A stretch of 31,556 nucleotides of DNA from a virus (Duplodnaviria > Heunggongvirae > Uroviricota > Caudoviricetes), in the IMG/VR virus record IMGVR_UViG_2917849834_000001, positions 1-31,556 of that record; one strand, 5' to 3'. The stretch's first letter is position 1. Every line of letters begins with the position of its first letter. Made by a program: the position numbers and the translations under genes. Below the pieces are notes generated by a model. It did not search any database. It had not been told where the DNA came from and was given only the letters and a program-made list of their open reading frames with translations. This document shows positions 406-30,459 of this stretch, one piece after another.

Positions 406-461
406 GTTCTCCAGATTTAAGTCAGGAACGTGTCAACGCTATTCAGGACGGGTCAGGACCA

Positions 462-485: not shown

Positions 486-609
486 TTTAATGTCACAGGG
501 AGTCGCGACTCCGTTGCGTATCCTTTTTTGTCTCCTCACCGTCTGGTCGGTGTCCTGATGAGACTTCTAACTTCCTGTTTTTGTTGTGATAACACCATCC
601 AATCATGAT

Positions 610-654
610 TGGTGGAGCTGGCGGGAGTTGAACCCGCGTCCGAAATTCCTACAT
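610..654 (-). other. Prophage attachment-site core: 45-nt copy of the 3' end of tmRNA gene ssrA (minus-strand sense ATGTAGGAATTTCGGACGCGGGTTCAACTCCCGCCAGCTCCACCA), not a complete ssrA gene
   Basis: Reverse complement of 610-654 matches the 3' terminus of enterobacterial ssrA as I recall it, including the acceptor-arm and CCA end; sequence 5' of it (655 onward) diverges from ssrA and runs into the integrase gene, so this is the phage-host junction carrying the core, with the intact ssrA expected at the other prophage end outside the window. Confidence 0.7.
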
Positions 655-8687: not shown

Positions 8688-9467
8688 ATGTATAATGCTT
8701 TTACTCTTCCCATATGGAGCCCTAACATGAATCGTTTGACTGAGATTGGTTTTATCAAGGTAGGATTCTGGCAGATTATAGACGGCAGCCTGAAATATCA
8801 TCTCGATGACAGATTCACAGATGTGAAGAACAACCTCTATGCATTTGTTTGTGATGGTGAGGTAAAGTACGTTGGTAAAACCACTCGTCTACTACGTAAC
8901 AGGATGTACCATTATTCACGTCCTGGCCCTTCCCAATCTACGAATATAAAAAATAACGCTAACATTATTGAGATGCTATCTAACAATGTTGCCGTAGATA
9001 TCTTGGTGCTTCCAGATTCAGGACTAATGCGCTATGGGCAATTTCACTTGAATCTTGCTGCTGGGCTTGAGGATTCAATCATTAGTCTTATCCGTCCTGA
9101 ATGGAATGGAATTCAGAGCCCAGTCTTGAAGAGTGAGGAATTAGTATCATCTGAAACTGAAATCATCACACATAGCAGTATCAAACAATTCACTTTCAAT
9201 ATGACAGATACGTACTGGCGTAGAGGATTCTTCAATGTGCCGGTAGTAAGTTCTCAACATTTTGGTAAAGACGGAGAGAACATTAAAATTGTTCTTCGTG
9301 ATGGTACGTCTTCCATCACTGCAATGATTAACCGAACTGCCAATCAGACTGGTTCACCCCGCATTATGGGGGGCGTTGAGCTCAGACAGTATTTTCAACT
9401 CAATTACATAATTGGTGATATCGTTCCTTTCGAAGTGATCACACAAAACATGATGAAGCTAAAATAA
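8688..9467 (+). CDS. GIY-YIG-like nuclease-domain protein with an uncharacterised C-terminal domain (possible B3/EcoRII-N-like DNA-binding fold); cargo gene
   Basis: 259-aa ORF with RBS GAGGAG; residues about 50-145 show GIY-YIG spacing (NLYAF ... KYVGKT ... RLLRNRMYHY ... E ... PEWN). Visibly AT-richer than flanking phage genes. Confidence 0.6.
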   Translation: MYNAFTLPIWSPNMNRLTEIGFIKVGFWQIIDGSLKYHLDDRFTDVKNNLYAFVCDGEVKYVGKTTRLLRNRMYHYSRPGPSQSTNIKNNANIIEMLSNNVAVDILVLPDSGLMRYGQFHLNLAAGLEDSIISLIRPEWNGIQSPVLKSEELVSSETEIITHSSIKQFTFNMTDTYWRRGFFNVPVVSSQHFGKDGENIKIVLRDGTSSITAMINRTANQTGSPRIMGGVELRQYFQLNYIIGDIVPFEVITQNMMKLK

Positions 9468-11124: not shown

Positions 11125-12887
11125 AAAATCTCCACAATATTGCTGGTATTGGCGGACTCGCCCTGCAGCGGTTCGTTAAACAGTGCGTGCATTGTTGCCC
11201 AGGCCAGATCGGCATGGCTGGCTTCTTCGCTGCGGCTGGCTTCATAGGTCGGGCGGTTGCCGCTGGCGGTGGTGGCGCGACGGATTGCCATGAATGACTG
11301 CGCAATGTCGGTGTGCCCGGCGTCAAACTCCAGACGGCGGTGGCTGATAATGTCGTAGGCCTTGAGCACCAGGGCATTTTTAACGTTGGGGTTGTAGACA
11401 AACTCCCGGACGGCAGGAAAGAACGCTTTCACGTTCTCATAAACCCCGTGACCAACGCCGGTCGAGTCGATACCGATATAGGTCACGTTGTACTGTTCGG
11501 TCAGTTTTTTGATCGCGTCAGCCTGGGCGCGGAAGTCCATCCCACGCCACTGGTGACGCTCAAGAATGCGGAACTTACCGCCCGGCACGGCTGGCGGTGC
11601 CACCACCACGCATCCGGCGCTGTCGCCGTTCTGCGTACCTTTTGCCGGGTCATAACCGATCCACACTTCGCGCCAGCCAAACGGGCGTAGCGCCAGTGCA
11701 TGAAAGTCGGTCCAGACTTCCCAACTGTCCACCATGCACGCCTGCAGCTCGCTGAGCGGGAACACGGATGCGAGATCGTCCACGAACTCACACATCAGCA
11801 GGTTCTGGTATTCGTCCGGGCTGTACTCCATGCGCAACTGGTCGAGATCGAACAGGTTACAGCCGCCGCGCACCGCATCTTCCACGGTGACTATCTGGCG
11901 GTATTGCCCGTCTGCGCACAGCAGGCCGGGGGCCAGATTGTTGTGGGACAGGTCGATGTCCACCTTATCGGCTTTGTTGCGCCCACGGTTGAACAGCGCA
12001 CCGGACCAGAACGGATAAGCACTGTGGGTCAGGCTGGATGGCGTGGAAAAATAGGTTTGTCGCCATTTTTTGTGAATAGCCATACCGGAAGCTACTTTGC
12101 GCAGCTCCTGGAATTTCGGTATCCAGAAATATTCATCCAGATACAGGTTGCCGTGGTAACTCTGGGCAGTGCGGGCATTGGTGCCGAGGAAATACAGTGT
12201 GGCCCCGTTAGGAAGCACCATCGGATCGCCTTTCAGCTCCACTTCCACTTCTTTGGCGAAGTCGATGATGTACTGTTTAAAGACGTGGGCCTGAGCCTTG
12301 CTGGCGGAAAGGAAAATCTGGTTACGCCCGGTAAGCAGGGCGTCAATCAGGGCTTCACGGGCAAAGTAAAAGGTCGCGCCGATCTGGCGTGACTTCAGCA
12401 GGTTGCGGATGCGGTTGGTTTTTCCGGCTTCCCACCAGTGGCGCTGGTAGTTGAACATGGAGGAATGGAAGATTTCTTCCAGCTTCTCAATCTGTTCATC
12501 GGTGAAGACATTCTTTTCCGGCTGACGGCGCGGGCCTTTGTTGCGGTTGGCGACGTTAGGGTTTAAGTCGGCTTCGTTGCCGCCATTGTTAAACTTGCCG
12601 ATCCGCGCGTGGCGCTCCGACTGGCGCGCCAGCAGGTCAATCTCTTTGAAATCTTTCCCTTCTTTGTGCTCCTTCATAATGAGCTGGCAGTAGCGTGCGG
12701 CGGTGGTGAGCTGCATCTGATCCAGCGGCCCATAGTCACCCCACTTGTCGCGTTTTTTCCAGCTGTGAACGGTTGCAACTTTCTCGCCCAGCATTTCAGC
12801 AATGCGGGCGACGCGGTATCCCTGAAAGTACAGCAGCATGGCCTGCCGACGGGGATCGAGATCTGCGGGTGTCAGTGTGGTGTTCAT
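11121..12887 (-). CDS. P: Terminase large (ATPase) subunit (P2 gpP)
   Basis: 588-aa ORF (P2 P is about 590 aa), divergent from the O-N-M-L operon as in P2. Confidence 0.88.
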   Translation of the reverse strand: MNTTLTPADLDPRRQAMLLYFQGYRVARIAEMLGEKVATVHSWKKRDKWGDYGPLDQMQLTTAARYCQLIMKEHKEGKDFKEIDLLARQSERHARIGKFNNGGNEADLNPNVANRNKGPRRQPEKNVFTDEQIEKLEEIFHSSMFNYQRHWWEAGKTNRIRNLLKSRQIGATFYFAREALIDALLTGRNQIFLSASKAQAHVFKQYIIDFAKEVEVELKGDPMVLPNGATLYFLGTNARTAQSYHGNLYLDEYFWIPKFQELRKVASGMAIHKKWRQTYFSTPSSLTHSAYPFWSGALFNRGRNKADKVDIDLSHNNLAPGLLCADGQYRQIVTVEDAVRGGCNLFDLDQLRMEYSPDEYQNLLMCEFVDDLASVFPLSELQACMVDSWEVWTDFHALALRPFGWREVWIGYDPAKGTQNGDSAGCVVVAPPAVPGGKFRILERHQWRGMDFRAQADAIKKLTEQYNVTYIGIDSTGVGHGVYENVKAFFPAVREFVYNPNVKNALVLKAYDIISHRRLEFDAGHTDIAQSFMAIRRATTASGNRPTYEASRSEEASHADLAWATMHALFNEPLQGESANTSNIVEIF

Positions 12888-12933
12888 GGCACAAACCTAC
12901 AGCCTTGAATGAAGGCTTTCCCCGCCTGCGGTT

Positions 12934-12951
12934 TGTGTGGTTGTCGGTACA
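12934..12951. promoter_or_regulatory. Late-promoter activator site TGT-N12-ACA in the P/O divergent region (Ogr/B-type zinc-finger activator target)
   Basis: TGTGTGGTTGTCGGTACA: TGT and ACA separated by 12 nt, the dyad characteristic of P2/186 late promoters, between divergent late operons. Confidence 0.5.
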
Positions 12952-13029
12952 AATACCGCGCATTGTTTCACTGCCCCCATCACCGCAACCATAAGGCTCC
13001 AGTAAGTTTTTTCTAACGGAGCACGGCTC

Positions 13030-13863
13030 ATGACAGTGAAAGCAAAGCGTTTTCGCATCGGGGTGGAAGGTGCCACCACCGACGGACGCGAAATCCAGCG
13101 TGAATGGCTGGAACAGATGGCAGCCAGCTACAACCCGGCGGTGTATACCGCGCTGATTAACCTTGAGCACATCAAGTCTTATCTGCCGGACAGCACCTTT
13201 AACCGCTACGGCAAGGTGACGGCGCTGTTTGCTGAAGAAATCACGGAAGGTCCGCTGGCAGGCAAGATGGCGCTGTATGCCGACGTTGAGCCAACGGAGT
13301 CCCTGGTGGAACTGGTGAAAAAAGGCCAGAAATTATTCACATCTATGGAAGTCAGCCCGAAGTTCGCTGATACGGGCAAAGCCTACCTGGTCGGCCTGGC
13401 TGCCACTGATGACCCTGCCAGTCTGGGTACGGAAATGCTGACATTCAGCGCCAGTGCAGCCCATAACCCGCTGGCAAACCGCAAGCAGAATCCTGCCAAT
13501 CTCTTTACCGCTGCAGAGGAAACGGTGATCGAACTGGAAGAAATCCAGGAGGACAAGCCGTCCCTGTTTACCCGTGTCACGGCGCTGTTCACCAAAAAAG
13601 AGCAGTCCGACGATGCCCGGTTCTCTGATGTGCATAAGGCCGTGGAGCTGGTCGCCACTGAGCAGCAGAACCTGAACGCACGCACCGAAAAATCCCTGTC
13701 TGAGCAGGAAGAACGCCTGTCTGAGCTGGAGACTGCTCTGCAGGAGCAGCAAACCGCCTTTAACGAACTGGTGAATAAGCTGAGTCATGAAGACAGCCGC
13801 CAGGACTACCGCCAGCGTGCAACAGGCGGTAACGCCCCCGCTGACACTCTGACCAATTGCTGA
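13030..13863 (+). CDS. O: Capsid scaffolding protein (P2 gpO)
   Basis: 277 aa (P2 O is about 284), first gene of the rightward head operon; Glu/Gln-rich coiled-coil C-terminal half. Confidence 0.85.
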   Translation: MTVKAKRFRIGVEGATTDGREIQREWLEQMAASYNPAVYTALINLEHIKSYLPDSTFNRYGKVTALFAEEITEGPLAGKMALYADVEPTESLVELVKKGQKLFTSMEVSPKFADTGKAYLVGLAATDDPASLGTEMLTFSASAAHNPLANRKQNPANLFTAAEETVIELEEIQEDKPSLFTRVTALFTKKEQSDDARFSDVHKAVELVATEQQNLNARTEKSLSEQEERLSELETALQEQQTAFNELVNKLSHEDSRQDYRQRATGGNAPADTLTNC

Positions 13864-13879
13864 TGGAGCACAAAACCTG

Positions 13880-14938
13880 ATGAAGAAGAATACCCGCTTT
13901 GCTTTTAACGCTTACCTGCAGCAGCTGGCACGTCTGAACGGTGTGGCAGTTGAAGAACTGTCCAGCAAATTCACCGTGGAGCCGTCTGTACAGCAGACGC
14001 TGGAAGACCAGATCCAGCAGTCCGCCGCTTTCCTGACGCTGATTAACGTCACGCCAGTGACTGAACAGTCCGGTCAGCTGCTGGGGCTGGGTGTTGGTAG
14101 TACCATTGCCGGAACCACTGATACCTCCGCGAAAGAGCGTGAACCCGTCGATCCGACCCTGATGGTCGATGTGGAATATAAATGCGAGCAGACCAACTTT
14201 GACACGGTGCTGACCTACGCGAAGCTGGATCTGTGGGCGAAGTTTCAGGATTTCCAGGTGCGTATCCGTGACGCCATCGTGAAACGTCAGGCACTGGACC
14301 GCATCATGATCGGCTTTAACGGCGTGAAGCGCGCGAAAACCTCTAACCGTAGCGAAAACCCGCTGCTGCAGGATGTGAACAAAGGCTGGTTGCAGAAAAT
14401 CCGTGAGGATGCACCGGATCACGTCATGGGAAGCACCACCACGGGCGGTGAAACCACACCGGGCGCAGTGAAAGTCGGCAAAGGTGGCGAATATGCCAAC
14501 CTGGACGCTGTAGTGATGGATGCGGTCAATGAGCTTATCGACGTGGTCTACCAGGACGATGACGATCTGGTGGTGATTTGCGGTCGTGAACTGCTGTCTG
14601 ACAAGTATTTCCCGCTGGTCAACAAAGAGCAGGAGAACAGTGAAAAACTGGCTGCAGATATGATCATCAGCCAGAAACGCATGGGTGGCCTGCAGGCCGT
14701 GCGTGCGCCGTTCTTCCCGCCGAATGCGCTGCTGATCACCCGTCTGGATAACCTGTCCATCTACTGGCAGGAAGACACCCGCCGCCGTTCAGTTATCGAC
14801 AACCCGAAACGTGACCGGATTGAAAACTTTGAATCCGTTAACGAAGCCTATGTGGTTGAGGACTACCGCTGCGCTGCACTGGTGGAAAACATCCAGATTG
14901 GCGATTTTAGCGCCGCCGCAGCAGAAGCCGGAGCGTAA
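13880..14938 (+). CDS. N: Major capsid protein (P2 gpN)
   Basis: 352 aa (P2 N is about 357), follows the scaffold gene. Confidence 0.88.
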   Translation: MKKNTRFAFNAYLQQLARLNGVAVEELSSKFTVEPSVQQTLEDQIQQSAAFLTLINVTPVTEQSGQLLGLGVGSTIAGTTDTSAKEREPVDPTLMVDVEYKCEQTNFDTVLTYAKLDLWAKFQDFQVRIRDAIVKRQALDRIMIGFNGVKRAKTSNRSENPLLQDVNKGWLQKIREDAPDHVMGSTTTGGETTPGAVKVGKGGEYANLDAVVMDAVNELIDVVYQDDDDLVVICGRELLSDKYFPLVNKEQENSEKLAADMIISQKRMGGLQAVRAPFFPPNALLITRLDNLSIYWQEDTRRRSVIDNPKRDRIENFESVNEAYVVEDYRCAALVENIQIGDFSAAAAEAGA

Positions 14939-14941
14939 CCC

Positions 14942-15592
14942 ATGAGCCTGAGTCCCGCACGGCAGCATCGCCTGCGCGTTCAGGCTGAACAGGCCGCCCG
15001 TGAGGGCGGCAGCGTTCGCCACGCGTCGGGCTATGACCTGATGCTGCTGCAACTGGCGGAAGACCGCCGCCGTCTCAAGGGCGTTCAGTCCACGGTCAAA
15101 AAAGCGGAAATCAAAGTGGAGCTGTTGCCGAAGTACGCCGCCTGGGCGGAGGGTGTTCTGGCTGCCGGAGGCGCTCAACAGGATGACGTGCTGATGTACG
15201 TGATGCTGTGGCGTATTGATGCCGGAGATTATGCCGGGGCGCTGGAGATCGGGCGTCATGCCCTGCGTCATGGCTGGGTGATGCCGCTGGGTAACCGCAA
15301 CGTGCAGACCGTGCTGGCAGAGGAAATGGCAGACGCCGCGCAGAGCGCAATACTTGCCGCCACCGGCTTTGATGCCGATCTGTTGTTGCAGACGCTGGAG
15401 CTGACAGACGGTCTGGATATGCCGGACCAGTCACGGGCGCGTCTGCATAAAGCGATTGGCGCTGTCCTGAGTGAAAGCAATCCGGCTTCCGCCCTTAATC
15501 ATCTCAACCATGCGTTACAGCTCGATCCCCGCTGTGGCGTGAAAAAAGACAAACAGCAGCTGGAGCGCAGACTGCGCAATGACAGCCGCTGA
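14942..15592 (+). CDS. M: Terminase small/endonuclease subunit (P2 gpM)
   Basis: 216 aa at the gpM position immediately after the capsid gene. Confidence 0.8.
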   Translation: MSLSPARQHRLRVQAEQAAREGGSVRHASGYDLMLLQLAEDRRRLKGVQSTVKKAEIKVELLPKYAAWAEGVLAAGGAQQDDVLMYVMLWRIDAGDYAGALEIGRHALRHGWVMPLGNRNVQTVLAEEMADAAQSAILAATGFDADLLLQTLELTDGLDMPDQSRARLHKAIGAVLSESNPASALNHLNHALQLDPRCGVKKDKQQLERRLRNDSR

Positions 15593-15687
15593 CAGAACGT
15601 GCCCCCGCGCACGGGCGGCACGGGGTGGCGAAAGGCACTGCCACATCAAAACCCCGTCCACCGCCCTCTATTTCAGGAGAAAGCAGC

Positions 15688-16152
15688 ATGAAGTTTGTTG
15701 CGCCAGAACAGGCACCGGAACAGGCGGAAATCATCAGGAATACGCCGTTCTGGCCTGATGTGGACTTGTCGGAGTTTCGCAGTGTCATGCGCACTGACGG
15801 CACGGTGACGCAGCCGCGTTTAAAGCAGGTTGCGCTGTCGGCAATTTCGGAGGTCAACGCAGAGCTGTATGAGTTTCGCAGACGTCAGCAGATGCTGGGG
15901 TATGCGTCGCTGGCTGAGGTTCCGGCGGAACAGCTGGACGGCAAAAGTGAGCGCATTCAGCACTATTTCAACGCGGTTTACTGCTGGGCACGCGCCATGC
16001 TCAACGAACGATACCAGGACTATGACGCCACGGCATCGGGTGTGAAGCGAGGCGAGGAACTGGCGGAAGCAAGCGGTGATTTGTGGCGTGACGCCCGCTG
16101 GGCCATCAGCCGGGTACAGGATGCGCCGCACTGCACAGTGGAGCTTATCTGA
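15688..16152 (+). CDS. L: Head completion/stabilisation protein (P2 gpL)
   Basis: ATG at 15688 preceded by CAGGAGAAAGCAGC; about 154 aa; the ORF-track start at 15625 lacks an RBS. Confidence 0.8.
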   Translation: MKFVAPEQAPEQAEIIRNTPFWPDVDLSEFRSVMRTDGTVTQPRLKQVALSAISEVNAELYEFRRRQQMLGYASLAEVPAEQLDGKSERIQHYFNAVYCWARAMLNERYQDYDATASGVKRGEELAEASGDLWRDARWAISRVQDAPHCTVELI

Positions 16153-16355
16153 TGAAAGTGCGTGCGCATCAGTATGACACGGTGGACGCGCTTTGCTGGC
16201 GTCATTACGGGCGCACGCAGGGTGTCACGGAGCAGGTACTGAAGGCAAACCCGGGGCTTGCCGAATACGGCCCCTTTTTACCTCACGGGCTGCAGGTGGA
16301 GCTGCCGGACATTCCGACTACCACCACCGTGCAGACCGTCCAGCTATGGGACTGA
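16152..16355 (+). CDS. X: Tail protein X (P2 gpX)
   Basis: 67 aa, the same length as P2 gpX; ATG overlaps the L stop. Confidence 0.8.
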   Translation: MKVRAHQYDTVDALCWRHYGRTQGVTEQVLKANPGLAEYGPFLPHGLQVELPDIPTTTTVQTVQLWD

Positions 16356-16358
16356 ATT

Positions 16359-16574
16359 ATGACGCTTGAGCGAATCAGCGCCTTTATCACGTATTGCATC
16401 GCCGTCGTGCTGGCCTGGCTGGGCGATTTGTCCATCAAGGATGCCTCAACGCTGGGCGGCCTGATGATCGGTGTGCTGATGCTGGCTATCAACTGGTACT
16501 ACAAACACAAAGCCTACCAGCTTCTGCGCGACGGGCAGATCTCGCGGGAGGACTATGAATCCATCAATCGTTAA
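16359..16574 (+). CDS. Holin, two-TMD class (pinholin-like)
   Basis: 71 aa with two hydrophobic segments (ISAFITYCIAVVLAWLG; LGGLMIGVLMLAINWYY) and a charged C-terminus; immediately upstream of the endolysin. Confidence 0.7.
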   Translation: MTLERISAFITYCIAVVLAWLGDLSIKDASTLGGLMIGVLMLAINWYYKHKAYQLLRDGQISREDYESINR

Positions 16575-17067
16575 ACGCTGCCTTATCGGGGCCGTGCTGG
16601 CTATTGCTGCCACGCTACCGGGTTTTCAGCAGCTTCACACCTCCGTGGAGGGGCTGAAACTGATTGCTGATTACGAAGGCTGTCGTCTGCAGCCGTATCA
16701 GTGCAGCGCGGGTGTCTGGACCGACGGCATTGGTAATACATGGGGCGTCATTCCCGGCAAAACAATCACGGAACGACAGGCAGCAGAAGGGCTGATCTCC
16801 AACGTGCTGCGTGTGGAGCGGGCACTGGAAAGGTGTGTGAAGCAACAGCCACCACAGAAGGTGTATGACGCTACGGTGTCGTTTGCCTTCAACGTGGGAA
16901 CTAGCAATGCCTGCAGTTCCACACTGGTGAAATTGCTCAATCAGCGGCGCTGGGCGGATGCGTGCCGACAGTTGCCGCGCTGGGTGTATGTAAAAGGTGT
17001 GTTTAATCAGGGGCTGGATAACCGCCGTGCGCGGGAGATGGCCTGGTGCTTACAGGGAGCAAACTGA
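16555..17067 (+). CDS. Endolysin (lysozyme-type), probably SAR (signal-anchor-release)
   Basis: 170 aa; N-terminal weakly hydrophobic segment CLIGAVLAIAATLPG followed by an E...D...T lysozyme catalytic region (ADYEGCRLQPYQCSAGVWTDGIGNT). Confidence 0.8.
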   Translation: MNPSIVKRCLIGAVLAIAATLPGFQQLHTSVEGLKLIADYEGCRLQPYQCSAGVWTDGIGNTWGVIPGKTITERQAAEGLISNVLRVERALERCVKQQPPQKVYDATVSFAFNVGTSNACSSTLVKLLNQRRWADACRQLPRWVYVKGVFNQGLDNRRAREMAWCLQGAN

Positions 17068-17068
17068 A

Positions 17069-17446
17069 ATGAAAAAGAAAGTAATCAGCGGACTGTTTCT
17101 GATGTTATGGATAGCGCTGTTAATCGCCGCAATGGTGTATCCGCAGGGGATTTTTCCGGTACTGGCAGCATCTGGTGTCTGGGTAGCCTGTCTGCTGACA
17201 TGGGCGGTAATTCCGGTATCACTGGCTGCGTTAATTAAGAACGGCCCGCTTTGGCAGGAGTTGAGGGCATCTTTGCTGAAGACAATTACCCGAAAAGAAA
17301 ACGTATTTATCAGCTGGATGATGCGATTGCTGATTGTCGTCAGTCTCGCCTGGACGGGGTGGGCTATTACCCTGGTCTTTTATCTACTGACCGTTATTGC
17401 CTTCTGGATCACCCGTAATCAGATGGCGCAACAGGTAGCAGCATGA
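17069..17446 (+). CDS. lysA: LysA-like lysis-timing membrane protein
   Basis: ATG at 17069 overlapping the endolysin stop; 125 aa with four hydrophobic segments. Confidence 0.65.
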   Translation: MKKKVISGLFLMLWIALLIAAMVYPQGIFPVLAASGVWVACLLTWAVIPVSLAALIKNGPLWQELRASLLKTITRKENVFISWMMRLLIVVSLAWTGWAITLVFYLLTVIAFWITRNQMAQQVAA

Positions 17447-17871
17447 ACCGGTTGCTGCTGGTTGTGCTGGCGTTATTACTGGCGGCGCTGGGCTGGCAGA
17501 CGTGGCGGCTGGCTGATGCCAGCCAGACCATCAGCACGCAGGCAGACGAGCTGCAGAGCAAAAGCCAGGCACTGGCAAAGAGCAACAGCCAGCTTATCAG
17601 CCTGTCCATTCTGACTGAAACCAATAACCGGGAGCAGGCGCGGCTCTATGCCGAAGCTGAACAGACCAGCGCACTGCTGAGACAACGACAACACCGGATT
17701 GAGGAACTGAAACGTGAGAACGAGGATTTACGCCGCTGGGCTGATACTCCTTTGCCTGCTGACATTATCCGGCTGCGGGAACGCCCCACACTCACCGGAG
17801 GTGCAGCTTACCGTCAGTGGTTGTCCGCGAGTGACGCCGTGTCGGTTGGGGCAGGCAGCGCCGCGCACTAA
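17443..17871 (+). CDS. lysB: i-spanin (LysB / Rz-like)
   Basis: 142 aa; N-terminal TMD (LLLVVLALLLAALGW) then coiled-coil periplasmic domain. Confidence 0.75.
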   Translation: MNRLLLVVLALLLAALGWQTWRLADASQTISTQADELQSKSQALAKSNSQLISLSILTETNNREQARLYAEAEQTSALLRQRQHRIEELKRENEDLRRWADTPLPADIIRLRERPTLTGGAAYRQWLSASDAVSVGAGSAAH

Positions 17872-18004
17872 CGGTGACCTGAACGCGTTGCTGGATGAAA
17901 CGGAGGCCGCCTGGGCGGTCTGTGCAGACAAAGTGGACATGATTATTGCGTGTCAGGAGAGAAACAGTGAACAAACCACAATCCCTGCGCCACGCCCTCA
18001 ATAA
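17714..18004 (+). CDS. lysC: o-spanin lipoprotein (LysC / Rz1-like), partly embedded in lysB in another frame
   Basis: 96 aa; lipobox LLTLSGC near the N-terminus; overlaps the 3' part of lysB out of frame. Confidence 0.7.
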   Translation: MRTRIYAAGLILLCLLTLSGCGNAPHSPEVQLTVSGCPRVTPCRLGQAAPRTNGDLNALLDETEAAWAVCADKVDMIIACQERNSEQTTIPAPRPQ

Positions 18005-18398
18005 AGCGGTGCCTTATGTCCGCAATAACCCGGACAAACTGCATCTGTTTGTGGATAACGGTTCGCTGGTTGCCACGGGGGCCAGCTCCATGTCGTGGGA
18101 GTACCGTTACACCCTGAACGCGGTGATTGAGGATTTCAGCGGCGACCAGAATCTGCTGATGGCCCCGGTTTTGCTGTGGCTGCGTGATAACCAGCCCGAT
18201 GCCATCAATAACCCGGCGTTACGGGAAAAGTTATTCACCTTTGAGGTGGATATTCTGCGCAATGATGTCTGTGATATCAGCCTGAACCTGCAACTGACGG
18301 AGCGTGTGCTGGTCAGCACTGACGGGAGTGTGTCGAGTGTTGAAGCGGTAGCGGAACCCGATGAACCTGATGAAATGTGGACGGTGAAACGTGGCTGA
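17946..18398 (+). CDS. R: Tail completion protein R (P2 gpR); start may be the GTG at 17966
   Basis: About 150 aa; KPQSLRHAL...LHLFVDNGS...VLLWLRDNQPD aligns with P2 gpR from memory. Confidence 0.8.
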   Translation: MRVRRETVNKPQSLRHALNKAVPYVRNNPDKLHLFVDNGSLVATGASSMSWEYRYTLNAVIEDFSGDQNLLMAPVLLWLRDNQPDAINNPALREKLFTFEVDILRNDVCDISLNLQLTERVLVSTDGSVSSVEAVAEPDEPDEMWTVKRG

Positions 18399-18837
18399 AC
18401 TGCAGAAGGTGGACGACTGGCTGAATGCCTTGCTGGCGAATCTGGAACCAGCCGCCAGAAGCCGCATGATGCGCCAGCTGGCGCAGGAACTGCGCCGGAC
18501 ACAGCAGCAGAACATCAGGATGCAGCGCAATCCTGATGGCAGCAGCTATGAACCGAGGCGAGTAACAGCACGCAGTAAAAAAGGCCGTATCAAACGTCAG
18601 ATGTTTGCAAAGCTGCGCACCACAAAATACCTGAAAACTGCCGCCAGCGCCGACTCTGCCAGCGTCCAGTTTGAAGGCAAGGTACAGCGCATTGCCCGTG
18701 TTCATCACTACGGCCTGCGCGATCGCGTCAGTCGTAAGGGACCGGAGGTCCGTTACGCAGAGCGTCGCCTTCTGGGTGTAAATGATGATGTTGAGGCAAT
18801 GACCCGTGACATGATTCTGCAATGGCTGGCGGGGTGA
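18391..18837 (+). CDS. S: Tail completion protein S (P2 gpS)
   Basis: 148 aa (P2 S is about 150) at the expected position, overlapping the R stop. Confidence 0.8.
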   Translation: MAELQKVDDWLNALLANLEPAARSRMMRQLAQELRRTQQQNIRMQRNPDGSSYEPRRVTARSKKGRIKRQMFAKLRTTKYLKTAASADSASVQFEGKVQRIARVHHYGLRDRVSRKGPEVRYAERRLLGVNDDVEAMTRDMILQWLAG

Positions 18838-18841
18838 TCTT

Positions 18842-18859
18842 TGTATCAGCACTGATACA
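18842..18859. promoter_or_regulatory. Late promoter activator site, perfect dyad TGTATCAGCACTGATACA (TGT-N12-ACA) upstream of gene V
   Basis: Perfect palindrome with TGT/ACA arms, about 50 nt upstream of the V start, the position of P2 promoter PV. Confidence 0.6.
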
Positions 18860-18905
18860 AGTTGCAGCACTGCCGCCTTTCTTCCCCTGATGGCAACCTT
18901 TCCCT

Positions 18906-19484
18906 ATGAACGCACAATTAACCGAAATCATGCGCCTTATCACCAATCTGATCCGCACAGGTGTAGTCACCGAAGTGGACCGGGAAAACTGGCTGTGTCG
19001 GGTGAAAACGGGCGACCTTGAAACTAACTGGATCAGTTGGCTGACGCTGCGTGCCGGGAATGCCCGCACATGGTGGCGACCATCGGAAGGTGAGCAGGTG
19101 GTACTGCTGAGTCTGGGAGGCAATCTGGAAACCGCCTTTGCGCTGCCCGCTGTCTATTCGAATCAGTTCGCGCCACCGTCGACGTCGGCGGAAGCCTGCG
19201 TGACAGAACATCCTGACGGTGGCTGGTTTGAATACGAACCCACCACCGGGCGCTGGTATGTCAGGGGCATCAAATCCATGGTCATTGAGGCTGCCGACAA
19301 CATAACCCTGAAAACCAGTGAGTTTGTACTGGATGCTGACCGCACACGTATTAACAGTGAAGTGGTGATCAATGGTGGCGTTACCCAGGGCGGCGGTGCA
19401 ATGAGTTCTAACGGGATCGTGGTTGATGCACATCAGCATACTGGCGTCCTGAAAGGCGGCGACACAACCGGAGGTCCGGTATGA
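18906..19484 (+). CDS. V: Baseplate spike/assembly protein V (P2 gpV)
   Basis: 192 aa at the P2 V position. Confidence 0.8.
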   Translation: MNAQLTEIMRLITNLIRTGVVTEVDRENWLCRVKTGDLETNWISWLTLRAGNARTWWRPSEGEQVVLLSLGGNLETAFALPAVYSNQFAPPSTSAEACVTEHPDGGWFEYEPTTGRWYVRGIKSMVIEAADNITLKTSEFVLDADRTRINSEVVINGGVTQGGGAMSSNGIVVDAHQHTGVLKGGDTTGGPV

Positions 19485-19840
19485 CGCTTTATAGCGGGAT
19501 GAACAATACCAGCGGTAAAGCCATTACTGATATTGACCATCTGCGCCAGTCGGTGCGGGACATTCTGCTGACACCGCAGGGTAGCCGTATTGCCCGTCGT
19601 GAATATGGTTCCCTGCTGTCGGCACTGATAGATCAGCCACAAAATCCGGCGTTACGCCTGCAGGTCATGTCGGCAGTGTATGTGGCGCTGAGTCGCTGGG
19701 AGCCACGGCTGACGCTGGATTCCATCACCATCAACAGCAATTTTGACGGTTCAATGGTGGTGGCGCTGACCGGGCGGCGTAATAACGGTGTGCCTGTGTC
19801 ACTTTCCGTATCAACAGGAGCAGAGAATGGCAGTGATTGA
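19481..19840 (+). CDS. W: Baseplate wedge protein W (P2 gpW, gp25-like)
   Basis: 119 aa (P2 W is about 115); start overlaps the V stop. Confidence 0.8.
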   Translation: MTLYSGMNNTSGKAITDIDHLRQSVRDILLTPQGSRIARREYGSLLSALIDQPQNPALRLQVMSAVYVALSRWEPRLTLDSITINSNFDGSMVVALTGRRNNGVPVSLSVSTGAENGSD

Positions 19841-20735
19841 CCTTTCGCAGTTGCCTGCGCCGCAGATTGTCGATGTGCCAGACTTTGAGACGCTGCTTGC
19901 CGAACGCAAGGCAGAATTTGTGGCGCTTCATCCGAAAGATGAGCAGGAAGCAGTGATGCGTACGCTGGAACTGGAATCTGAACCCGTCACTAAATTGTTG
20001 CAGGAGAACGCTTACCGTGAGTTGCTTCTGCGCCAGCGCATTAACGAAGCCGCGCAGGCGGTGATGGTGGCTTACGCGATGGGCGGCGATCTGGACCAGC
20101 TCGCTGCCAACTACAACGTGAAGCGCCTGACGGTGACGCCTGCTGATAATGACGCTGTGCCGCCCGTTGCGGCAGTGATGGAAAGCGATGAAGCGTTACG
20201 CCTGCGTGTGCCTGCAGCCTTTGAGGGGCTTTCAGTTGCGGGACCAACTGCCGCTTATGAATTTCATGCCCGAAGCGCCGACGGTCGGGTGGCGGATGCC
20301 AGTGCAACCAGTCCGGCACCTGCAGAGGTGGTACTGACTGTCCTGAGCCGTGAAGGCGACGGAACAGCAGAAAAAGATTTGCTGGATGTGGTGGAGAAAG
20401 CCCTGAACAGTGAGAATGTCCGCCCGGTGGCTGACCGTCTGACGGTTCGCAGCGCAGAAATCATCCCGTACCGCGTGGAAGCCACCATTTTTCTCTATCC
20501 GGGGCCGGAAGCAGAGCCGGTAATGGCTGCGGCAAAAGCCAGTCTGCAGAAGTACATCGCCAGTCAGACGCGGCTTGGCCGGGATATTCGCCGTAGTGCC
20601 ATCTTTGCCGCCCTGCATGTTGAGGGGGTGCAGCGTGTGGAGCTGGCTTCCCCGCTGGCGGATGTGGTCCTGAACAAAACACAGGCGGCATCATGTACGC
20701 AGTGGAGCGTAACCAACGGAGGAACGGATGAATAG
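19827..20735 (+). CDS. J: Baseplate assembly protein J (P2 gpJ)
   Basis: ATG at 19827 preceded by CAGGAGCAGAGA; about 302 aa, matching the P2 J size. Confidence 0.82.
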   Translation: MAVIDLSQLPAPQIVDVPDFETLLAERKAEFVALHPKDEQEAVMRTLELESEPVTKLLQENAYRELLLRQRINEAAQAVMVAYAMGGDLDQLAANYNVKRLTVTPADNDAVPPVAAVMESDEALRLRVPAAFEGLSVAGPTAAYEFHARSADGRVADASATSPAPAEVVLTVLSREGDGTAEKDLLDVVEKALNSENVRPVADRLTVRSAEIIPYRVEATIFLYPGPEAEPVMAAAKASLQKYIASQTRLGRDIRRSAIFAALHVEGVQRVELASPLADVVLNKTQAASCTQWSVTNGGTDE

Positions 20736-21333
20736 TCTGCTGCCACCGGGTTCAACACCACTGGAGCGCCGACTGGCGCAAACCTGCAGCGGGATTTCTG
20801 ATTTGCAGGTGCCTCTGCGTGACCTGTGGGATCCGGCTACCTGTCCGGTCAGTTTCCTGCCTTATCTCGCCTGGGCGTTCTCTGTGGATCGATGGGACGA
20901 GGACTGGACGGAAAGCGTCAAACGCCAGGTGGTAAAGGATGCCTTTTATATCCATCAGCATAAAGGAACCACCAGTGCCGTGCGGCGGGTGGTGGAGCCG
21001 TTCGGCTTTCTGATCCGCATTATTGAGTGGTGGCAGACCGGATAAGCACCCGGCACGTTTCGCCTGGACATTGGTGTGCAGGACCAGGGCATCACTGAAG
21101 ATACCTATCTGGAACTTGAGCGGCTGATAAGCGATGCCAAACCATGTAGCCGTCACATGATCGGCATGTCCATCAATCTGCAGACCAGTGGCCCGCACTG
21201 GGTGGGGGCCGCCAGTTATCTTGGCGAAGAAATCACGATTTATCCGTATATCAACGAAACGATTATTTCTGGCGGCACCGCGCATGAGGGCGGGGCAGTC
21301 CACGTTATTGACACAGTGAGAGTGAATCCATGA
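20728..21333 (+). pseudogene. I: Baseplate/tail protein I (P2 gpI) interrupted by an in-frame TAA at 21043-21045
   Basis: ORF 20728-21045 (EWWQTG, stop) and ORF 21076-21333 are in the same frame; translation across the stop continues APGTFRLDIGV, matching the middle of P2 gpI (about 176 aa as one protein). Confidence 0.6.
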
Positions 21334-22757
21334 GCACAAAATTTTATACCCTGCTGACGGAGATTGGTGCGGCGAAACTTGCCAGCGCCACTGCACTTGG
21401 TGTGCCGCTTAAAATTACCCATATGGCGGTAGGCGATGGCGGCGGAACATTACCAACGCCGGACGCAAAGCAGACGGCACTGGTAAATGAGAAACGCCGG
21501 GCTGCGCTGAATATGCTCTATATCGACCCGCAGAACAGCAGCCAGATTATTGCTGAACAGGTGATCCCCGAAAACGAGGGCGGTTGGTGGATCCGTGAAG
21601 TGGGCCTGTTTGATGAATCAGGGGCATTGATTGCCGTGGGAAACTGCCCGGAAAGCTATAAGCCGCAACTAGCTGAAGGCAGCGGGCGCACCCAGACCGT
21701 GCGCATGGTGCTGATTACCAGCAGTACCGATAATATCACACTGAAAATTGACCCTTCAGTGGTGCTGGCAACCCGCAAGTATGTGGATGACAAGGTGCTT
21801 GAGCTTAAGGTGTATGTGGATGACCTGATGGCAAAGCATCTTGCTGCTGCAGATCCTCATACGCAGTATGCGCCCAAAGACAGCCCAACATTGACTGGCA
21901 CGCCGAAAACGCCAACAGCACCGGCGGGAACTAACACGACTCAGATTGCTAGCACGGCATTTGTGCAGGCGGTGGTCACTGCGCTAAATAACGCACTGGC
22001 GTTGAAAGCTCCACTGGCAAGTCCGGCCCTGACCGGAACGCCGACGGCTCCGACTGCAGCGCAAACGGCGAACAATACGCAGATTGCCACCACGGCATTT
22101 GTGAAAGCGGCAGTTGCCGAGATGGTCGGTTCATCGCCGGAGGCGCTGGATACGTTAAATGAATTGGCTGCTGCGCTGGGGAATGATCCTAACTTTGCGA
22201 CAACAGTAATGAGTGCGCTGGCGGGAAAAATGAACAAAGCAGCTAATGGCGCTGATATTGCCGATGTTTCTGCTTTTCTAAAAAACCTTCATCTTGGGGA
22301 GGGCAGTGCGTTGCCAGTCGGTGTTCCTGTTCCGTGGCCTACTGCAATACCGCCGGAAGGTTGGTTGAAGTGTAATGGAGCATCATTCAGTTCCTCGCAA
22401 TATCCGAAACTGGCGCAGGTTTATCCGTCATTAAAATTACCAGATCTACGCAGTGAGTTTATTCGCGGCTGGGACGATGGGCGTGGCGTAGACGCTGGAC
22501 GTCAGGTTCTAACGTCTCAGACTGATGCTATGCAGCCGATTATCGGCTCCATTGGCTATGGTACAAACGGTATGTTTACTTATGCTGATGGAGCTTTTAC
22601 GGGTATAGATCGTGAAAGCGGAGACGGTATTGTTACACAGGCAACAAGCATCTCACAATATAAACAGGCTCACTTAGATTCAAGTACGATAACACGAACA
22701 GCGGCAGAAACACGTCCACGGAATATTTCATTTAATTACATTGTGAGAGCAGCATAA
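21330..22757 (+). CDS. H: Tail fibre protein (P2 gpH family) with variable C-terminal receptor-binding region
   Basis: N-terminus (MSTKFYTLLTEIGAAKLA...MAVGDGGG) matches P2 gpH; internal tandem repeats (about 21879-22140); the conserved LNELAAALGNDPNFATT block; C-terminal third unlike P2 and AT-richer. Confidence 0.85.
   Translation: MSTKFYTLLTEIGAAKLASATALGVPLKITHMAVGDGGGTLPTPDAKQTALVNEKRRAALNMLYIDPQNSSQIIAEQVIPENEGGWWIREVGLFDESGALIAVGNCPESYKPQLAEGSGRTQTVRMVLITSSTDNITLKIDPSVVLATRKYVDDKVLELKVYVDDLMAKHLAAADPHTQYAPKDSPTLTGTPKTPTAPAGTNTTQIASTAFVQAVVTALNNALALKAPLASPALTGTPTAPTAAQTANNTQIATTAFVKAAVAEMVGSSPEALDTLNELAAALGNDPNFATTVMSALAGKMNKAANGADIADVSAFLKNLHLGEGSALPVGVPVPWPTAIPPEGWLKCNGASFSSSQYPKLAQVYPSLKLPDLRSEFIRGWDDGRGVDAGRQVLTSQTDAMQPIIGSIGYGTNGMFTYADGAFTGIDRESGDGIVTQATSISQYKQAHLDSSTITRTAAETRPRNISFNYIVRAA
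21879..22140 (+). repeat. Two tandem copies of an about 40-aa tail-fibre repeat within gene H
   Basis: Protein segments SPTLTGTPKTPTAPAGTNTTQIASTAFVQAVV and SPALTGTPTAPTAAQTANNTQIATTAFVKAAV. Confidence 0.6.
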
Positions 22758-23353
22758 TGACAGAAGCGAAACTAAATAATGAGTTTATAGCTGTGGAATC
22801 TGGCAATATAACGGTGTTTAACTTTGATATTGAAACTCGTGAATATCTTTCTTCTAGTGTTGAATTTCTTGCTGTAGGGGTTGGGATTCCAGCTAATTCA
22901 TGCATTGATATGCCGGGTAAAAGTAAAAAAGGGTTAACCATTTGCCGGACTAAGGATCTTACCGCGTGGGAATATATTGCTGATCATCGAGGTGAGACTG
23001 TTTACAGCACCGAAACTGGCAAAAAAATAGCTGTAACAGTGCTCGGCGATTACCCAGAAAAAACTACGAAACTACCTCCTGCTACACCATACGATAAGTG
23101 GAACGGTAGTGCATGGGTGACAGATACCGAGATGCAGCACGAGGTTGACGTGGAAACTGCTGATCAGAAGAAAGCGGAGCTTCTGGCAAAGGCTCAGCTA
23201 ACAATCAATCTATGGCAGACAGAACTACAATTAGGAATTATCAGTGATGAAGATAAAGTCAGACTAATCACTTGGATGAATTACATCAAAGCGGTGCAGT
23301 TGGTAGACACGTCAACTGCGCCAGATATAACGTGGCCGAGGAAGCCCGAGTGA
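22757..23353 (+). CDS. G: Tail fibre assembly chaperone (P2 gpG / Tfa family)
   Basis: 198 aa immediately after the fibre gene (ATGA overlap). Confidence 0.8.
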   Translation: MTEAKLNNEFIAVESGNITVFNFDIETREYLSSSVEFLAVGVGIPANSCIDMPGKSKKGLTICRTKDLTAWEYIADHRGETVYSTETGKKIAVTVLGDYPEKTTKLPPATPYDKWNGSAWVTDTEMQHEVDVETADQKKAELLAKAQLTINLWQTELQLGIISDEDKVRLITWMNYIKAVQLVDTSTAPDITWPRKPE

Positions 23354-23378
23354 CTGAGAATTAAATGGTTAGTATCAT

Positions 23379-23420
23379 CCTCCCCCACACTGCCTATATG
23401 GTATGAATACGAGGGGGAGG
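23379..23420 (+). terminator. Possible hairpin after the tail-fibre operon
   Basis: CCTCCCCC ... GGGGGAGG 8-bp stem with about 26-nt loop, followed by a T-rich stretch; loop is long, so uncertain. Confidence 0.3.
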
Positions 23421-23480
23421 CTGTTTGTTGTCTGTTTCTGTGATAATATTAGATTCTCGTTTTTTAATAAAAAAATCAAT

Positions 23481-24491
23481 ATGAAAGAGAATAAAATACG
23501 TTCTGCCGATGGCGTGAGAGGTTTCGCTTTGATGATTGTTGTGGTGATGCATGCTACGGGACTATTCTTTCCCTCACTTCATGATCATCTTGGAGGTACG
23601 GGGCAGCCCGGTGTTTGGTTGTTTTTTGTTCTTAGCGCCTTTTTGTTGACACATAAATTTATTAATTCTGGTTTTTCGTTTTTGAATGTGTTGAGTTATC
23701 TTTTAGGGCGAACAATAAGGATATTACCGATTTTTTATATTGCAGTATTAATTTATTACCTTATGGGATTTTATGATTTAGAGAAAATGAAATCGATAAT
23801 TTCATTTGATAGTACTTACATCCATCTCTGGACTATTCCGATAGAATTCAAGTTTTACTTTTTGTTGCCGATTGTGGTTTATCTCGCATCTAGTATCCAG
23901 AAAGTTGCAGGTAGAAAATATTCTTTGTTGTTTTTGATATTGTTAACCTTAGCGTTCGCTTTTATATACCCTTATACGGATGACGAAATCAACGGTAGGC
24001 TACCGTATTATATTCCTGTTTTTATGTATGGAATTATAATTGCGTTTATGTATAACTATTTTCAAATTAAAATATCATCTCTCGTTAGTGATGGGGTGTC
24101 AATTGCGATTATATTAATATTTATAATGTTGACCCCTCCTTTTCAGGGGGCTAATGGTTGGCTGGGTAATAAATTTGTGGTATTAGGGCCATTTATTGCT
24201 CTCTTTGTATATCTGCAAGTAAATTCCAGTGGGTATGTAAGCGCGGTTTTATCTTCAAAAATCATGGCGGATTTGGGGAAATATAGTTTTTCAATTTATT
24301 TGTTTCATATAATGATAATTTTTATTGTTTATCCTAAATTTTTGGATAATGTTACTGCATACTTAGTTACTATAGCTTTATGTATTGGCGGTGGGGCTAT
24401 TGCCTATCATTGCATTGAATCTCCCTTGGAATCGTTCAGACATAAGCTTATGAAAAGAATAACGCAGGCTTATCAGAATCAAAATATTTAA
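23481..24491 (+). CDS. Acyltransferase family 3 (OafA/Oac-like) integral membrane protein; candidate lysogenic-conversion gene
   Basis: About 336 aa from the ATG at 23481; N-terminal RSADGVRGFALMIVVVMH motif typical of acyltransferase-3 proteins; about 10 hydrophobic segments; strongly AT-rich; located between G and FI. Confidence 0.75.
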   Translation: MKENKIRSADGVRGFALMIVVVMHATGLFFPSLHDHLGGTGQPGVWLFFVLSAFLLTHKFINSGFSFLNVLSYLLGRTIRILPIFYIAVLIYYLMGFYDLEKMKSIISFDSTYIHLWTIPIEFKFYFLLPIVVYLASSIQKVAGRKYSLLFLILLTLAFAFIYPYTDDEINGRLPYYIPVFMYGIIIAFMYNYFQIKISSLVSDGVSIAIILIFIMLTPPFQGANGWLGNKFVVLGPFIALFVYLQVNSSGYVSAVLSSKIMADLGKYSFSIYLFHIMIIFIVYPKFLDNVTAYLVTIALCIGGGAIAYHCIESPLESFRHKLMKRITQAYQNQNI

Positions 24492-24505
24492 GTAAAAGCA
24501 AAAAA

Positions 24506-24534
24506 GGCTCTCGTCAACCGACGAAGCCTTTTAA
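24506..24534. terminator. Hairpin terminator flanked by A-run and T-run (possibly bidirectional)
   Basis: AAAAAA-GGCTCTCGTC-AACC-GACGAAGCC-TTTTAAAA; stem has one bulge. Confidence 0.55.
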
Positions 24535-24625
24535 AACGAGTATTAATTCCCGTCCTGTAAAGTGCCCCCTATCCCAGAACAACGTTTTTAGTTATCAACG
24601 CCGTTCCGAAAATTTCCTGCGACGT

Positions 24626-24643
24626 TGTGTGATTAACCGTACA
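24626..24643. promoter_or_regulatory. Late promoter activator site TGT-N12-ACA upstream of the tail sheath gene (PF-like)
   Basis: TGTGTGATTAACCGTACA, about 75-95 nt upstream of the FI start. Confidence 0.5.
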
Positions 24644-24719
24644 ACGCACATCAGCTGTCTGCATGGCGTAATCAATACAACATAGGGCGAAGCCTAAACC
24701 AATCAGGAGGTTCGCCACT

Positions 24720-25892
24720 ATGGCTCAGGATTACCACCACGGGGTGCGCGTTGTTGAAGTCAACGAAGGCACCCGATCCATTACCACGGTGAGCACCGCC
24801 ATCGTGGGCATGGTCTGCACGGGCGATGATGCCGATGCAAAAATGTTTCCTCTTAATAAACCCGTGCTGATCACTGATGTACTGACCGCCAGCGGTAAAG
24901 CGGGTGAGTCCGGCACGCTGGCCCGTTCGCTGGATGCCATCGCTGACCAGGCAAAACCCGTGACCGTTGTTGTGCGTGTGCCACAGGGTGAAACGGAAGA
25001 AGAAACCACAACCAATATCATTGGCGCAGTGACCGCCGAGGGTAAAAAAACAGGCATGAAAGCCCTGTTATCTGCCCAGTCACAGCTCGGCGTTAAACCG
25101 CGCATTCTCGGCGTGCCAGGTCACGATAACAAAGCCGTTGCGACTGAGTTGCTGAGCGTGGCGCAAAGCCTGCGCGGGTTTGCTTACCTGTCGGCGTATG
25201 GCTGCAAAACAGTGGAAGAAGTGCTTACCTACCGCGAAAACTTCAGTCAGCGTGAAGGGATGCTGATCTGGCCGGATTTTATCAGCTGGGACACGGTGCT
25301 GAATGCCGAAGCAACGGCATATGCCACCGCGCGTGCGCTTGGCCTGCGCGCCAAAATTGACGAGCAGACCGGATGGCACAAAAGCCTGTCCAACGTGGGC
25401 GTGAACGGTGTCACCGGAATTTCTGCTGATGTGTTCTGGGATCTGCAGGACCCGGCAACAGATGCAGGTCTGCTGAACCAGAACGACGTCACCACGCTTG
25501 TGCGCAAAGACGGTTTCCGCTTCTGGGGGTCCCGCTGCCTGAGTGATGACCCGCTCTTTGCCTTCGAAAACTACACCCGCACGGCGCAGGTACTGATGGA
25601 CACGATGGCAGAAGCGCACATGTGGGCGGTGGACAAACCGCTGAACCCGTCGCTGGCCCGCGACATTATCGAAGGTATCCGCGCCAAAATGCGTAGCCTG
25701 GTCAGTCAGGGCTATCTCATTGGTGGTGATTGCTGGCTGGACGAGTCGGTGAACGATAAAGACACTCTGAAAGCCGGGAAGCTCACCATCGATTACGACT
25801 ACACGCCAGTGCCGCCACTTGAAAACCTGATGCTGCGACAGCGCATCACCGATCAGTACCTGGTGAATTTCTCCAGCCAGGTCAGCGCGTAA
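24720..25892 (+). CDS. FI: Contractile tail sheath protein (P2 gpFI)
   Basis: 390 aa; long stretches align with P2 FI from memory ([33 protein letters not shown]); RBS CAGGAGG. Confidence 0.9.
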
Positions 25893-29900: not shown

Positions 29901-29978
29901 CAGCTTGATGAACGTGAACGCAGACTGAAGGCAAAGGCCAGGAGTAACTACAGCGATCAGGGGGGATACGACGCATGA
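26901..29978 (+). CDS. T: Tail tape measure protein (P2 gpT)
   Basis: 1025-aa ORF with coiled-coil N-terminal part and Ala/Gly/Leu-rich hydrophobic repeats in the middle, after the E/E' chaperone genes. Confidence 0.88.
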   Translation: MSDNNLRLQVILNAVDKLTRPFRSAQASSRELAAAVKKSRDAIKQLDQAGSSLDSFRKLQAENQKLGDRLNYARQRANLLSHELGSMGPPSQRQVVALGRQRLAVQRLEERQKKLQQQTALVRAELYRAGISANDGASATARITRETMRYNRQLSEQEARLRRVGEQQRKMHAARGAYARRLEVRDRIAGAGATTTAAGLAMGAPVMAAVKSYTSMEDAMKGVAKQVNGLRDDNGNRTARFYEMQDAIKAASEQLPMENGAVDFAALVEGGARMNVANPDDSWEDQKRDLLAFASTAAKAATAFELPADELSESLGKIAQLYKIPTRNIEQLGDALNYLDDNAMSKGADIIDVMQRLGGVADRLDYRKAAALGSTFLTLGAAPEVAASAANAMVRELSIATMQSKSFFEGMNLLKLNPEVIEKQMTKDAMGTIQRVLEKVNALPQDKRLSAMTMLFGKEFGDDAAKLANNLPELQRQLKLTAGNDALGSMQKESDINKDSLSAQWLLVKTGAQNTFSSLGETLRQPLMDILYTVKSVTGALRRWVEANPELTGTLMKVAAVVAAVTVGLGTLAVVLAAVLGPLAVIRLGFSVLGIKTLPSVTDAVTRTSSALSGLAGAPLAVLRRGLASSGSTAGLLTAPLSSLRRTASLTGNVLKTVAGAPVALLRSGLSGLRAVAVMFMNPLAALRGGLTATGAVLRVLASGPLAMLRVALYAISGLLGALLSPIGLVVTALAGVALVVWKYWQPITAFLGGVVEGFKAAAGPISAAFEPLKPVFQWIGDKVQALWGWFTDLLTPVKSTSAELQSAAAMGRRFGEALAEGLNMVMHPLDSLKSGVSWLLEKLGIVSKEAAKAKLPESVTRQQPATVNADGKVMMPSGGFPSWGYGFAGMYDSGGYIPRGQFGIVGENGPEIVNGPANVTSRRNTAALAAVVAGMMGVAAAPAELPPLHPLALPAKGGEAMVSRAAAVPPVHRIEAPTQIIIQTQPGQSAQDIAREVARQLDERERRLKAKARSNYSDQGGYDA

Positions 29979-30459
29979 TGATGGTGCTGGGATTGTACGT
30001 GTTTATGCTGCGCACCGTACCGTATCAGGAGCTGCAGTATCAACGCAGCTGGCGACATGCGGCAAACAGTCGGGTAAATCGTCGTCCGTCCACGCAGTTT
30101 CTGGGACCGGACAACGACATGCTGACGCTTTCCGGTGTTCTTATGCCGGAGATAACAGGCGGCAGGCTGTCGTTGCTGGCACTGGAGCAGATGGCAGAAC
30201 AGGGGAAAGCATGGCCCCTGATTGAAGGCAGCGGCACGATTTACGGCATGTATGTGATTGAGGGACTGAATCAGACTAAAACGGAGTTTTCCGCGACGGT
30301 ATGCCGCGCCGGATTGAGTTCACCCTGTCGCTCAAACGGGTGGATGAATCCCTGTCCGATATGTTCGGTGATCTCAGTGCGCAGCTGAATAATCTGCAGG
30401 ACACGGCAACATCTGCATTAAGCGATATCAGTAAAACGGTGGGAGGGCTGCTGTCGTGA
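29975..30459 (+). pseudogene. U: Tail protein U (P2 gpU) with an apparent -1 frameshift (single-base deletion) at the T4 run 30287-30290
   Basis: Frame starting 29975 matches P2 gpU N-terminal half (WPLIEGSGTIYGMYVI) then ends at 30388; the -1 frame from about 30280 encodes the conserved C-terminal part (PRRIEFTLSLKRVDESL) and ends with a TGA overlapping the D start (GTGA, 30456-30459). Confidence 0.6.

Follow-up and report, generated by a model that had tools for sequence, protein, structure and literature searches.

The question raised by this locus is whether a stop codon inside the baseplate gene I of a P2-like prophage marks a genuine loss of the gene, an error in the sequence, or a form of the gene that still supports an infectious phage. 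Regarding its reading frame, gene I lies on the plus strand at 20728-21333 of the window (the whole stretch of DNA analysed here, 31,556 nucleotides), and translation in that one frame gives 105 sense codons, a stop, another 95 codons and the normal stop at 21331-21333; codon 106 is the ochre triplet TAA at 21043-21045. The local sequence is ...GAG TGG TGG CAG ACC GGA TAA GCA CCC GGC ACG..., translated as ...EWWQTG*APGTFRLDIGV..., and the base after the TAA is a G (TAA-G context). The span measures 606 nt, as does the intact gene in relatives, and alignment with four of them revealed no indel.

As for the protein, it is assigned to PHROG 48 (tail protein), and its gene occupies the expected place in the V-W-J-I-H-G late operon, where the gene junctions overlap: the gene I ATG lies over the end of gene J (8 nt overlap), and the I/H overlap is ATGA. 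The part of gpI before the stop matches the Pfam family Tail_P2_I (PF09684) with 147.7 bits at profile positions 1-100 of 139, and the part after it matches the same family with 26.9 bits at positions 105-138 of 139 (cut-off 20.6 in both cases); since both halves match, the stop falls within a single conserved domain. The 95 codons beyond it are identical or nearly identical to those of intact relatives, a conservation that, to judge from the sequence, is not due to chance. The uninterrupted frame of about 200 codons expected for the gpI family is broken in the window, and gene I would here be a pseudogene of the Tail_P2_I family and no functional member of it. A long antisense ORF at 20752-21396 was considered as well and is regarded as a shadow of the GC-rich coding strand. 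The features around the stop are as follows.

19827..20735, plus strand: gene J, intact, for the gp6-like wedge protein that joins gpI in the wedge heterotrimer
20728..21045, plus strand: N-terminal gpI fragment (baseplate wedge/triplex protein), 105 sense codons and the premature TAA; PF09684, PHROG 48
21043..21045, plus strand: ochre TAA at codon 106, with T replacing the G of all 118 relatives (GAA/GAG, Glu)
21046..21333, plus strand: gene I remnant (C-terminal, untranslated), frame unchanged, with 95 codons up to the normal TGA; this TGA overlaps the gene H ATG
21076..21333, plus strand: 85-codon ORF from an in-frame GTG inside the gene I remnant, called by gene finders
21330..22757, plus strand: gene H (tail fibre, 475 aa), intact

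The state of gene I elsewhere was established from five relatives with annotation, from nine contigs in which gpJ is identical and from about 100 proviral contigs of IMG/VR. An ungapped comparison with 118 full-length relatives, representing 99 distinct sequences, leaves one private base in the 606 nt of the gene, the T at 21043, and all 118 have a G at this position; since no other private base occurs, the lesion reads as a single G-to-T transversion that turned GAA (Glu) into TAA, without further drift. The intact allele GAA GCA CCC is found in relative L016, which differs locally from the window by one base, and the neighbouring differences G59D and T107A are ordinary polymorphisms, with the D59 allele present in L015, L020, L022 and L023. 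At the protein level, column 106 is occupied by Glu in 83, Asp in 15 and Thr in 13 of 113 homologues, and it is flanked by the invariant motifs EWW (residues 100-102) and PGTF (residues 108-111).

Pattern scans of IMG/VR, exact and degenerate, returned no TAA, TGA or TAG at codon 106, and the positive control, GAR at the same codon, was recovered from at least 120 IMG/VR contigs. The result was also zero in the species-representative genomes (TAA and TGA tested) and in the JGI metagenomes (TAA tested); in 5,426 complete E. coli genomes, the best match to the 71-nt neighbourhood of the stop had 95.8% identity, and none carried the stop. The gene annotated as 'phage tail protein I' is 606 nt long in more than 1,000 E. 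coli genomes and in 34 phage records. A sense codon in all relatives, together with a frame and a sequence conserved beyond the stop, is what a pseudogene created by a nonsense mutation would leave, and this is the pattern found.

These comparisons also bear on whether gpI might naturally end at residue 105, with the downstream part a separate gene. Gene finders do call two ORFs, of 105 and 85 aa, and a fragment of 105 aa (P0003) exists in the protein collection. Against this, all 113 homologues are 199-206 aa long, with 74-98% identity, 102 of the 103 full-length IMG/VR copies are single intact ORFs, and each of the nine other contigs with an identical gpJ encodes an intact gpI of 201 aa; P0003 itself is labelled 'partial' and sits in a 231-member cluster, where the members read are mostly fragments of many lengths, so that one of 105 aa would turn up by chance. 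P0003 carries D35N and was examined as a possible second carrier of the stop; its equal length is treated as a coincidence. Relatives with two genes and a downstream start with a ribosome-binding site, as a naturally split gpI would have, were not found, and this reading is refuted, with next to no probability left to it. The first-pass annotation had claimed that a single in-frame ochre splits gpI with conserved sequence on both sides, which is confirmed by the translation, the Pfam matches and the relatives; the comparison with close relatives that it proposed gives Glu in 118 of the 118 full-length copies and no natural end of gpI at codon 105.

Whether the T itself can be trusted depends on the origin of the DNA. 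The window is 100% identical to the NCBI contig PDIA01000049.1 of GCA_004745155.1, in which position 21043 corresponds to 43945. PDIA00000000 belongs to the Escherichia cryptic clade II strain E4702 from intertidal sediment of Hong Kong, which was sequenced on the Ion Torrent platform with single-end reads of 35-400 nt at about 50x coverage, and assembled with MIRA and SPAdes followed by manual gap closure (PMC6639607). Contigs assembled independently by Logan from run SRR6148340 agree with the window at 100% identity in three stretches, 10728-21148, 21150-25757 and from 27674 to its end, where they run on for about 950 nt; they show the same T at 21043. This run, probably that of the E4702 experiment SRX3260360, very probably also supplied the reads of the deposited assembly. 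The TAA is therefore very probably in the reads, and this independent agreement makes an artefact of the assembler or of manual editing unlikely, but not a systematic artefact of base calling.

The characteristic error of Ion Torrent concerns the length of homopolymers and not substitution, and position 21043 is outside any homopolymer. The reading in which an error in base calling or consensus hides an intact gene I, with GAA as its true codon, draws on the nature of the source, a single-end Ion Torrent draft, on the change being confined to one isolate and the gene's only private base, and on a one-base homopolymer deletion in gene U of the same prophage that looks like a platform artefact; in addition, the lack of further drift in gene I is what an error and a very recent mutation would equally give. 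What speaks against it is that a substitution outside any homopolymer, at about 50x coverage, is not the error typical of this platform, and that a second assembler working on SRR6148340 gives the same base. Moreover, only one indel-type lesion occurs across the 37 genes of the window, and the host genes in the 8 kb flank have called lengths that are normal for E. coli; the consensus is therefore generally good. We consider such an error unlikely and hold it highly probable that the stop is real. The choice set out in the first-pass annotation, a defective prophage or a sequencing/assembly error, was well posed, and its assembly-error branch is made unlikely by the 100% identical Logan assembly. 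The stop is carried by one isolate only, and the exact gpH protein is found only in E4702; therefore, sister isolates cannot be used for testing its inheritance.

The lesion in gene U, absent from the first-pass annotation, deserves separate treatment. It is a -1 frameshift, with a run of four T where the relatives checked have five, and it splits the gene into two frames at 30289.

29975..30388, plus strand: gene U (tube initiator), present reading frame of 137 codons, shifted beyond codon 105
30287..30290, plus strand: T4 run in gene U, T5 in Cartapus and 12 IMG/VR contigs

In the window gene U spans 29975-30459 (485 nt), and its product has 137 aa instead of 161 aa; the run corresponds to positions 53189-53192 of PDIA01000049.1. 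The gene is 486 nt long in all the E. coli matches listed and 486-487 nt in 23 of 23 full-length IMG/VR copies, with T5 confirmed in the 12 that have a matching flanking motif. The same 137-aa frameshifted gpU is also encoded by a Logan contig of the unrelated run SRR12298613, which over 1.35 kb lacks another four single bases that the window has, with at least three of these losses in short homopolymers; since this error-rich contig shows the same T4, the T run seems prone to under-calling. The change from T5 to T4 fits the error type of Ion Torrent, and with 137 homopolymers of at least 5 nt in the window, a single mis-call is plausible. The chances that the frameshift is real or a homopolymer artefact are about even; if real, it would be a second knockout of a tail gene.

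The rest of the element looks functional. It is a P2-like prophage of about 32 kb (Peduoviridae, Elveevirus-like) integrated at ssrA in E4702, bounded on the left by the following feature.

609..654, no strand: attL core, a 46-nt copy of the ssrA 3' end

An identical 46-nt copy, attR, is located 920 nt past the window end, where it completes an intact tmRNA gene adjoining smpB. With tblastn, 37 of the 41 proteins of Escherichia phage Cartapus were matched in the window. Relative to Cartapus, the genes Q, P, O, N, M, L, X, holin, endolysin, LysB, R and S are full length and without stops, and so are V, W, J, FI, FII, E, E', T, D, Int, the regulators, Dam and gpA; genes H and G are intact ORFs as well, with only partial-length matches to Cartapus. 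Apart from genes I and U, the 35 genes compared with this phage are without stops or frameshifts.

Some further traits of the window can be recorded here. Directly outside attL, window positions 1-475 hold a fragment of an IS3-family element (HTH_28 transposase N-terminus, minus strand), which adjoins the displaced ssrA 3' end. A CI-type repressor (Phage_CI_repr and Phage_CI_C; 1800-2438, minus strand) has 55% identity to that of Cartapus, and its flanking genes have 93-98%; at the sequence level, this divergence indicates a different immunity type on a shared backbone. Between gene G and the sheath gene FI, positions 23403-24491 hold a gene of low GC content (about 39-42%) for a 362-aa membrane acyltransferase of the Acyl_transf_3 family, which is absent at this place in Cartapus and has no PADLOC match; it is probably an accessory (moron) gene for acetylation of surface polysaccharides. 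A 259-aa ORF (8688-9467) is found where P2 usually carries accessory genes, in low-GC sequence that separates the replication genes from cos; neither Pfam nor PADLOC matches it, and its one match, a weak one, is to PHROG 1111 'endonuclease' (E = 1.4e-9, residues 43-140). Some part of window positions 1-25000 is matched in 5,426 of 5,426 complete E. coli genomes, in 695 of them at 99% identity or more, and the first 620 nt have only 97-98% identity to E. coli genomes.

Regarding the consequences for the tail, classical amber-mutant genetics of P2 defined gene I as essential. The components of the P2 baseplate are V, W, J and I, and gpI is related to the type VI secretion protein TssG (PMC4604203). 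In a P2 cryo-EM preprint (2026), each of the six wedges consists of two gpJ and one gpI (10.64898/2026.09.14.750843), and the C-terminal region of gpI binds the gpH fibre (bioRxiv 10.64898/2026.09.14.750843). The intact gpI is homologous to the R2 pyocin protein Tri2 (PA0619; PDB 6u5b, 6u5k) over residues 3-174, with E = 2.5e-46. Truncation leaves 105 of 201 residues: the N-terminal helical part is kept, and the invariant PGTF/LDIGV strand, the next helix and the entire C-terminal region are lost. The secondary structure was taken from an AlphaFold2 model of an intact homologue with 98% identity, of low confidence (pLDDT 55) and too poor for fold searches, so that only its pattern was used, with caution; the structural argument rests on sequence homology and on the published structures. 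From these comparisons, a gpI of 105 residues should not support tail assembly.

The stop also affects what lies downstream. The ATGA overlap couples the start of gene H to the normal stop of gene I, and gene H itself has weak Shine-Dalgarno pairing (-4.0 kcal/mol); expression of gene H is likely to be reduced by lost coupling or polarity. As for re-initiation, the GTG at 21076, in frame and 31 nt past the stop, is the only plausible site in the gene I remnant. Its Shine-Dalgarno pairing is -3.7 kcal/mol, compared with a median of -6.7 for the real genes of the window, and its product would omit gpI residues 106-116, including the invariant PGTF motif. The sequence at this GTG is present in relatives with an intact gene I as well; therefore, nothing here evolved for re-initiation. 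No promoter-like site was found around the stop in a promoter scan, and four terminator-like pattern matches in this area are judged weak and are not tied to the mutation.

It could then be asked whether a real stop is compatible with an infectious prophage, through an ochre suppressor tRNA of the host, low-level readthrough, re-initiation at GTG 21076 giving a gpI in two pieces, or complementation in trans. In E. coli, a TAA with G as the next base terminates strongly and is among the least leaky stop contexts, and the window holds neither a tRNA nor any Rfam family. The stop is not conserved among relatives, as it would be in programmed readthrough or recoding, and it has neither a leaky context nor a stimulatory RNA element. 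An in-frame GTG does exist, with the weak pairing and the incomplete product described above, and the stop is placed in a turn that connects two predicted strands, where pyocin Tri2 has an insertion of two residues, although the break is inside one Pfam domain. E. coli genomes carry up to five copies of gene I. The Logan assembly breaks at 21149 and between 25757 and 27674, with otherwise identical sequence, and these breaks may reflect a second, partly identical P2-like prophage in E4702 that could complement gpI in trans. On the whole, the routes around the stop look poor, and an infectious prophage with a real stop is very unlikely. One version of it, in which the ochre is tolerated, assumes either a host ochre suppressor or a gpI made of two non-covalently joined pieces, residues 1-105 and the GTG 21076 product; the latter is conceivable because the break lies in a surface turn. 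If this were true, the prophage would stay inducible and infectious despite the stop, an outcome for which we see only a slim chance.

The reading we prefer is that gene I has suffered a nonsense knockout that is evolutionarily very recent, and that the prophage is in early decay and not an old remnant; we regard this as likely. A recent G-to-T change (GAA to TAA) at codon 106 would truncate gpI, which we infer to be the single-copy member of a (gpJ)2-gpI wedge with a C-terminus that anchors the gpH fibre. Since gpI would be present once per wedge and would hold the fibre, the wedges are predicted, from the P2 and R2 pyocin structures, neither to form properly nor to carry fibres, and the prophage would be unable to make infectious virions on its own. 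Termination 285 nt ahead of the ATGA junction would in addition uncouple gene H and lower its translation. Because the rest of the prophage looks functional, with a frameshift in gpU as a possible second lesion, the stop would be the first step of decay.

Regarding its significance, the ssrA prophage of E4702 is predicted to be defective in tail assembly, and surveys of prophages in Escherichia clade II, which is rarely sampled, should not count it as intact or inducible. The case also shows how a probably real substitution can be separated from a probably artefactual homopolymer indel in Ion Torrent drafts. The significance is local only, and no new mechanistic question is raised: inactivating point mutations in prophage structural genes are commonplace, and this is an ordinary, already known kind of event, with no indication of recoding, of a split gene or of a new system.

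Other disrupted copies of gpI place the lesion in context. Sporadic inactivation is seen in other P2-like prophages: in one of the 103 full-length IMG/VR copies (L129), gpI is interrupted by another in-frame stop, W49*. Public proteomes hold truncated gpI products (P0009, P0019 and P0021), and in P0009 the frameshift comes immediately after the same Glu codon. For P0018, a C-terminal gpI ORF of 85 aa, 199 contigs are on record, among them chromosomes of S. Typhi and E. coli. Loss of gpI may be recurrent in some clonal lineages. Unlike these other disrupted copies, the lesion of the window is at a different codon and private, in an element that is otherwise essentially intact.

Among intact systems, the closest are Escherichia phage Cartapus and Klebsiella phage 4LV2017 (Elveevirus, Peduoviridae), which have the same gene order, a gene I of 606 nt and about 94% nucleotide identity over about 78% of the window. 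Their genes I and U are intact, unlike those of the window, and they differ from it in the immunity repressor, the fibre C-terminus, the fibre assembly protein and the accessory (moron) genes. The homology to R2 pyocin Tri2 covers the EWWQ...PGTF region that the stop splits; Tri2 differs in its length of 177 aa, in its origin from a tailocin and in having its two-residue insertion exactly at the loop of codon 106. P2 gpI has 176 aa, compared with 201 aa in the lineage of the window; the two share the Tail_P2_I family, the V-W-J-I-H-G order and the role of a single-copy wedge protein that holds the fibre. A nonsense codon in gene I is the kind of lesion by which P2 gene I was defined genetically; unlike the amber mutants of P2, the stop described here is a spontaneous ochre in a wild prophage of another genus-level group.
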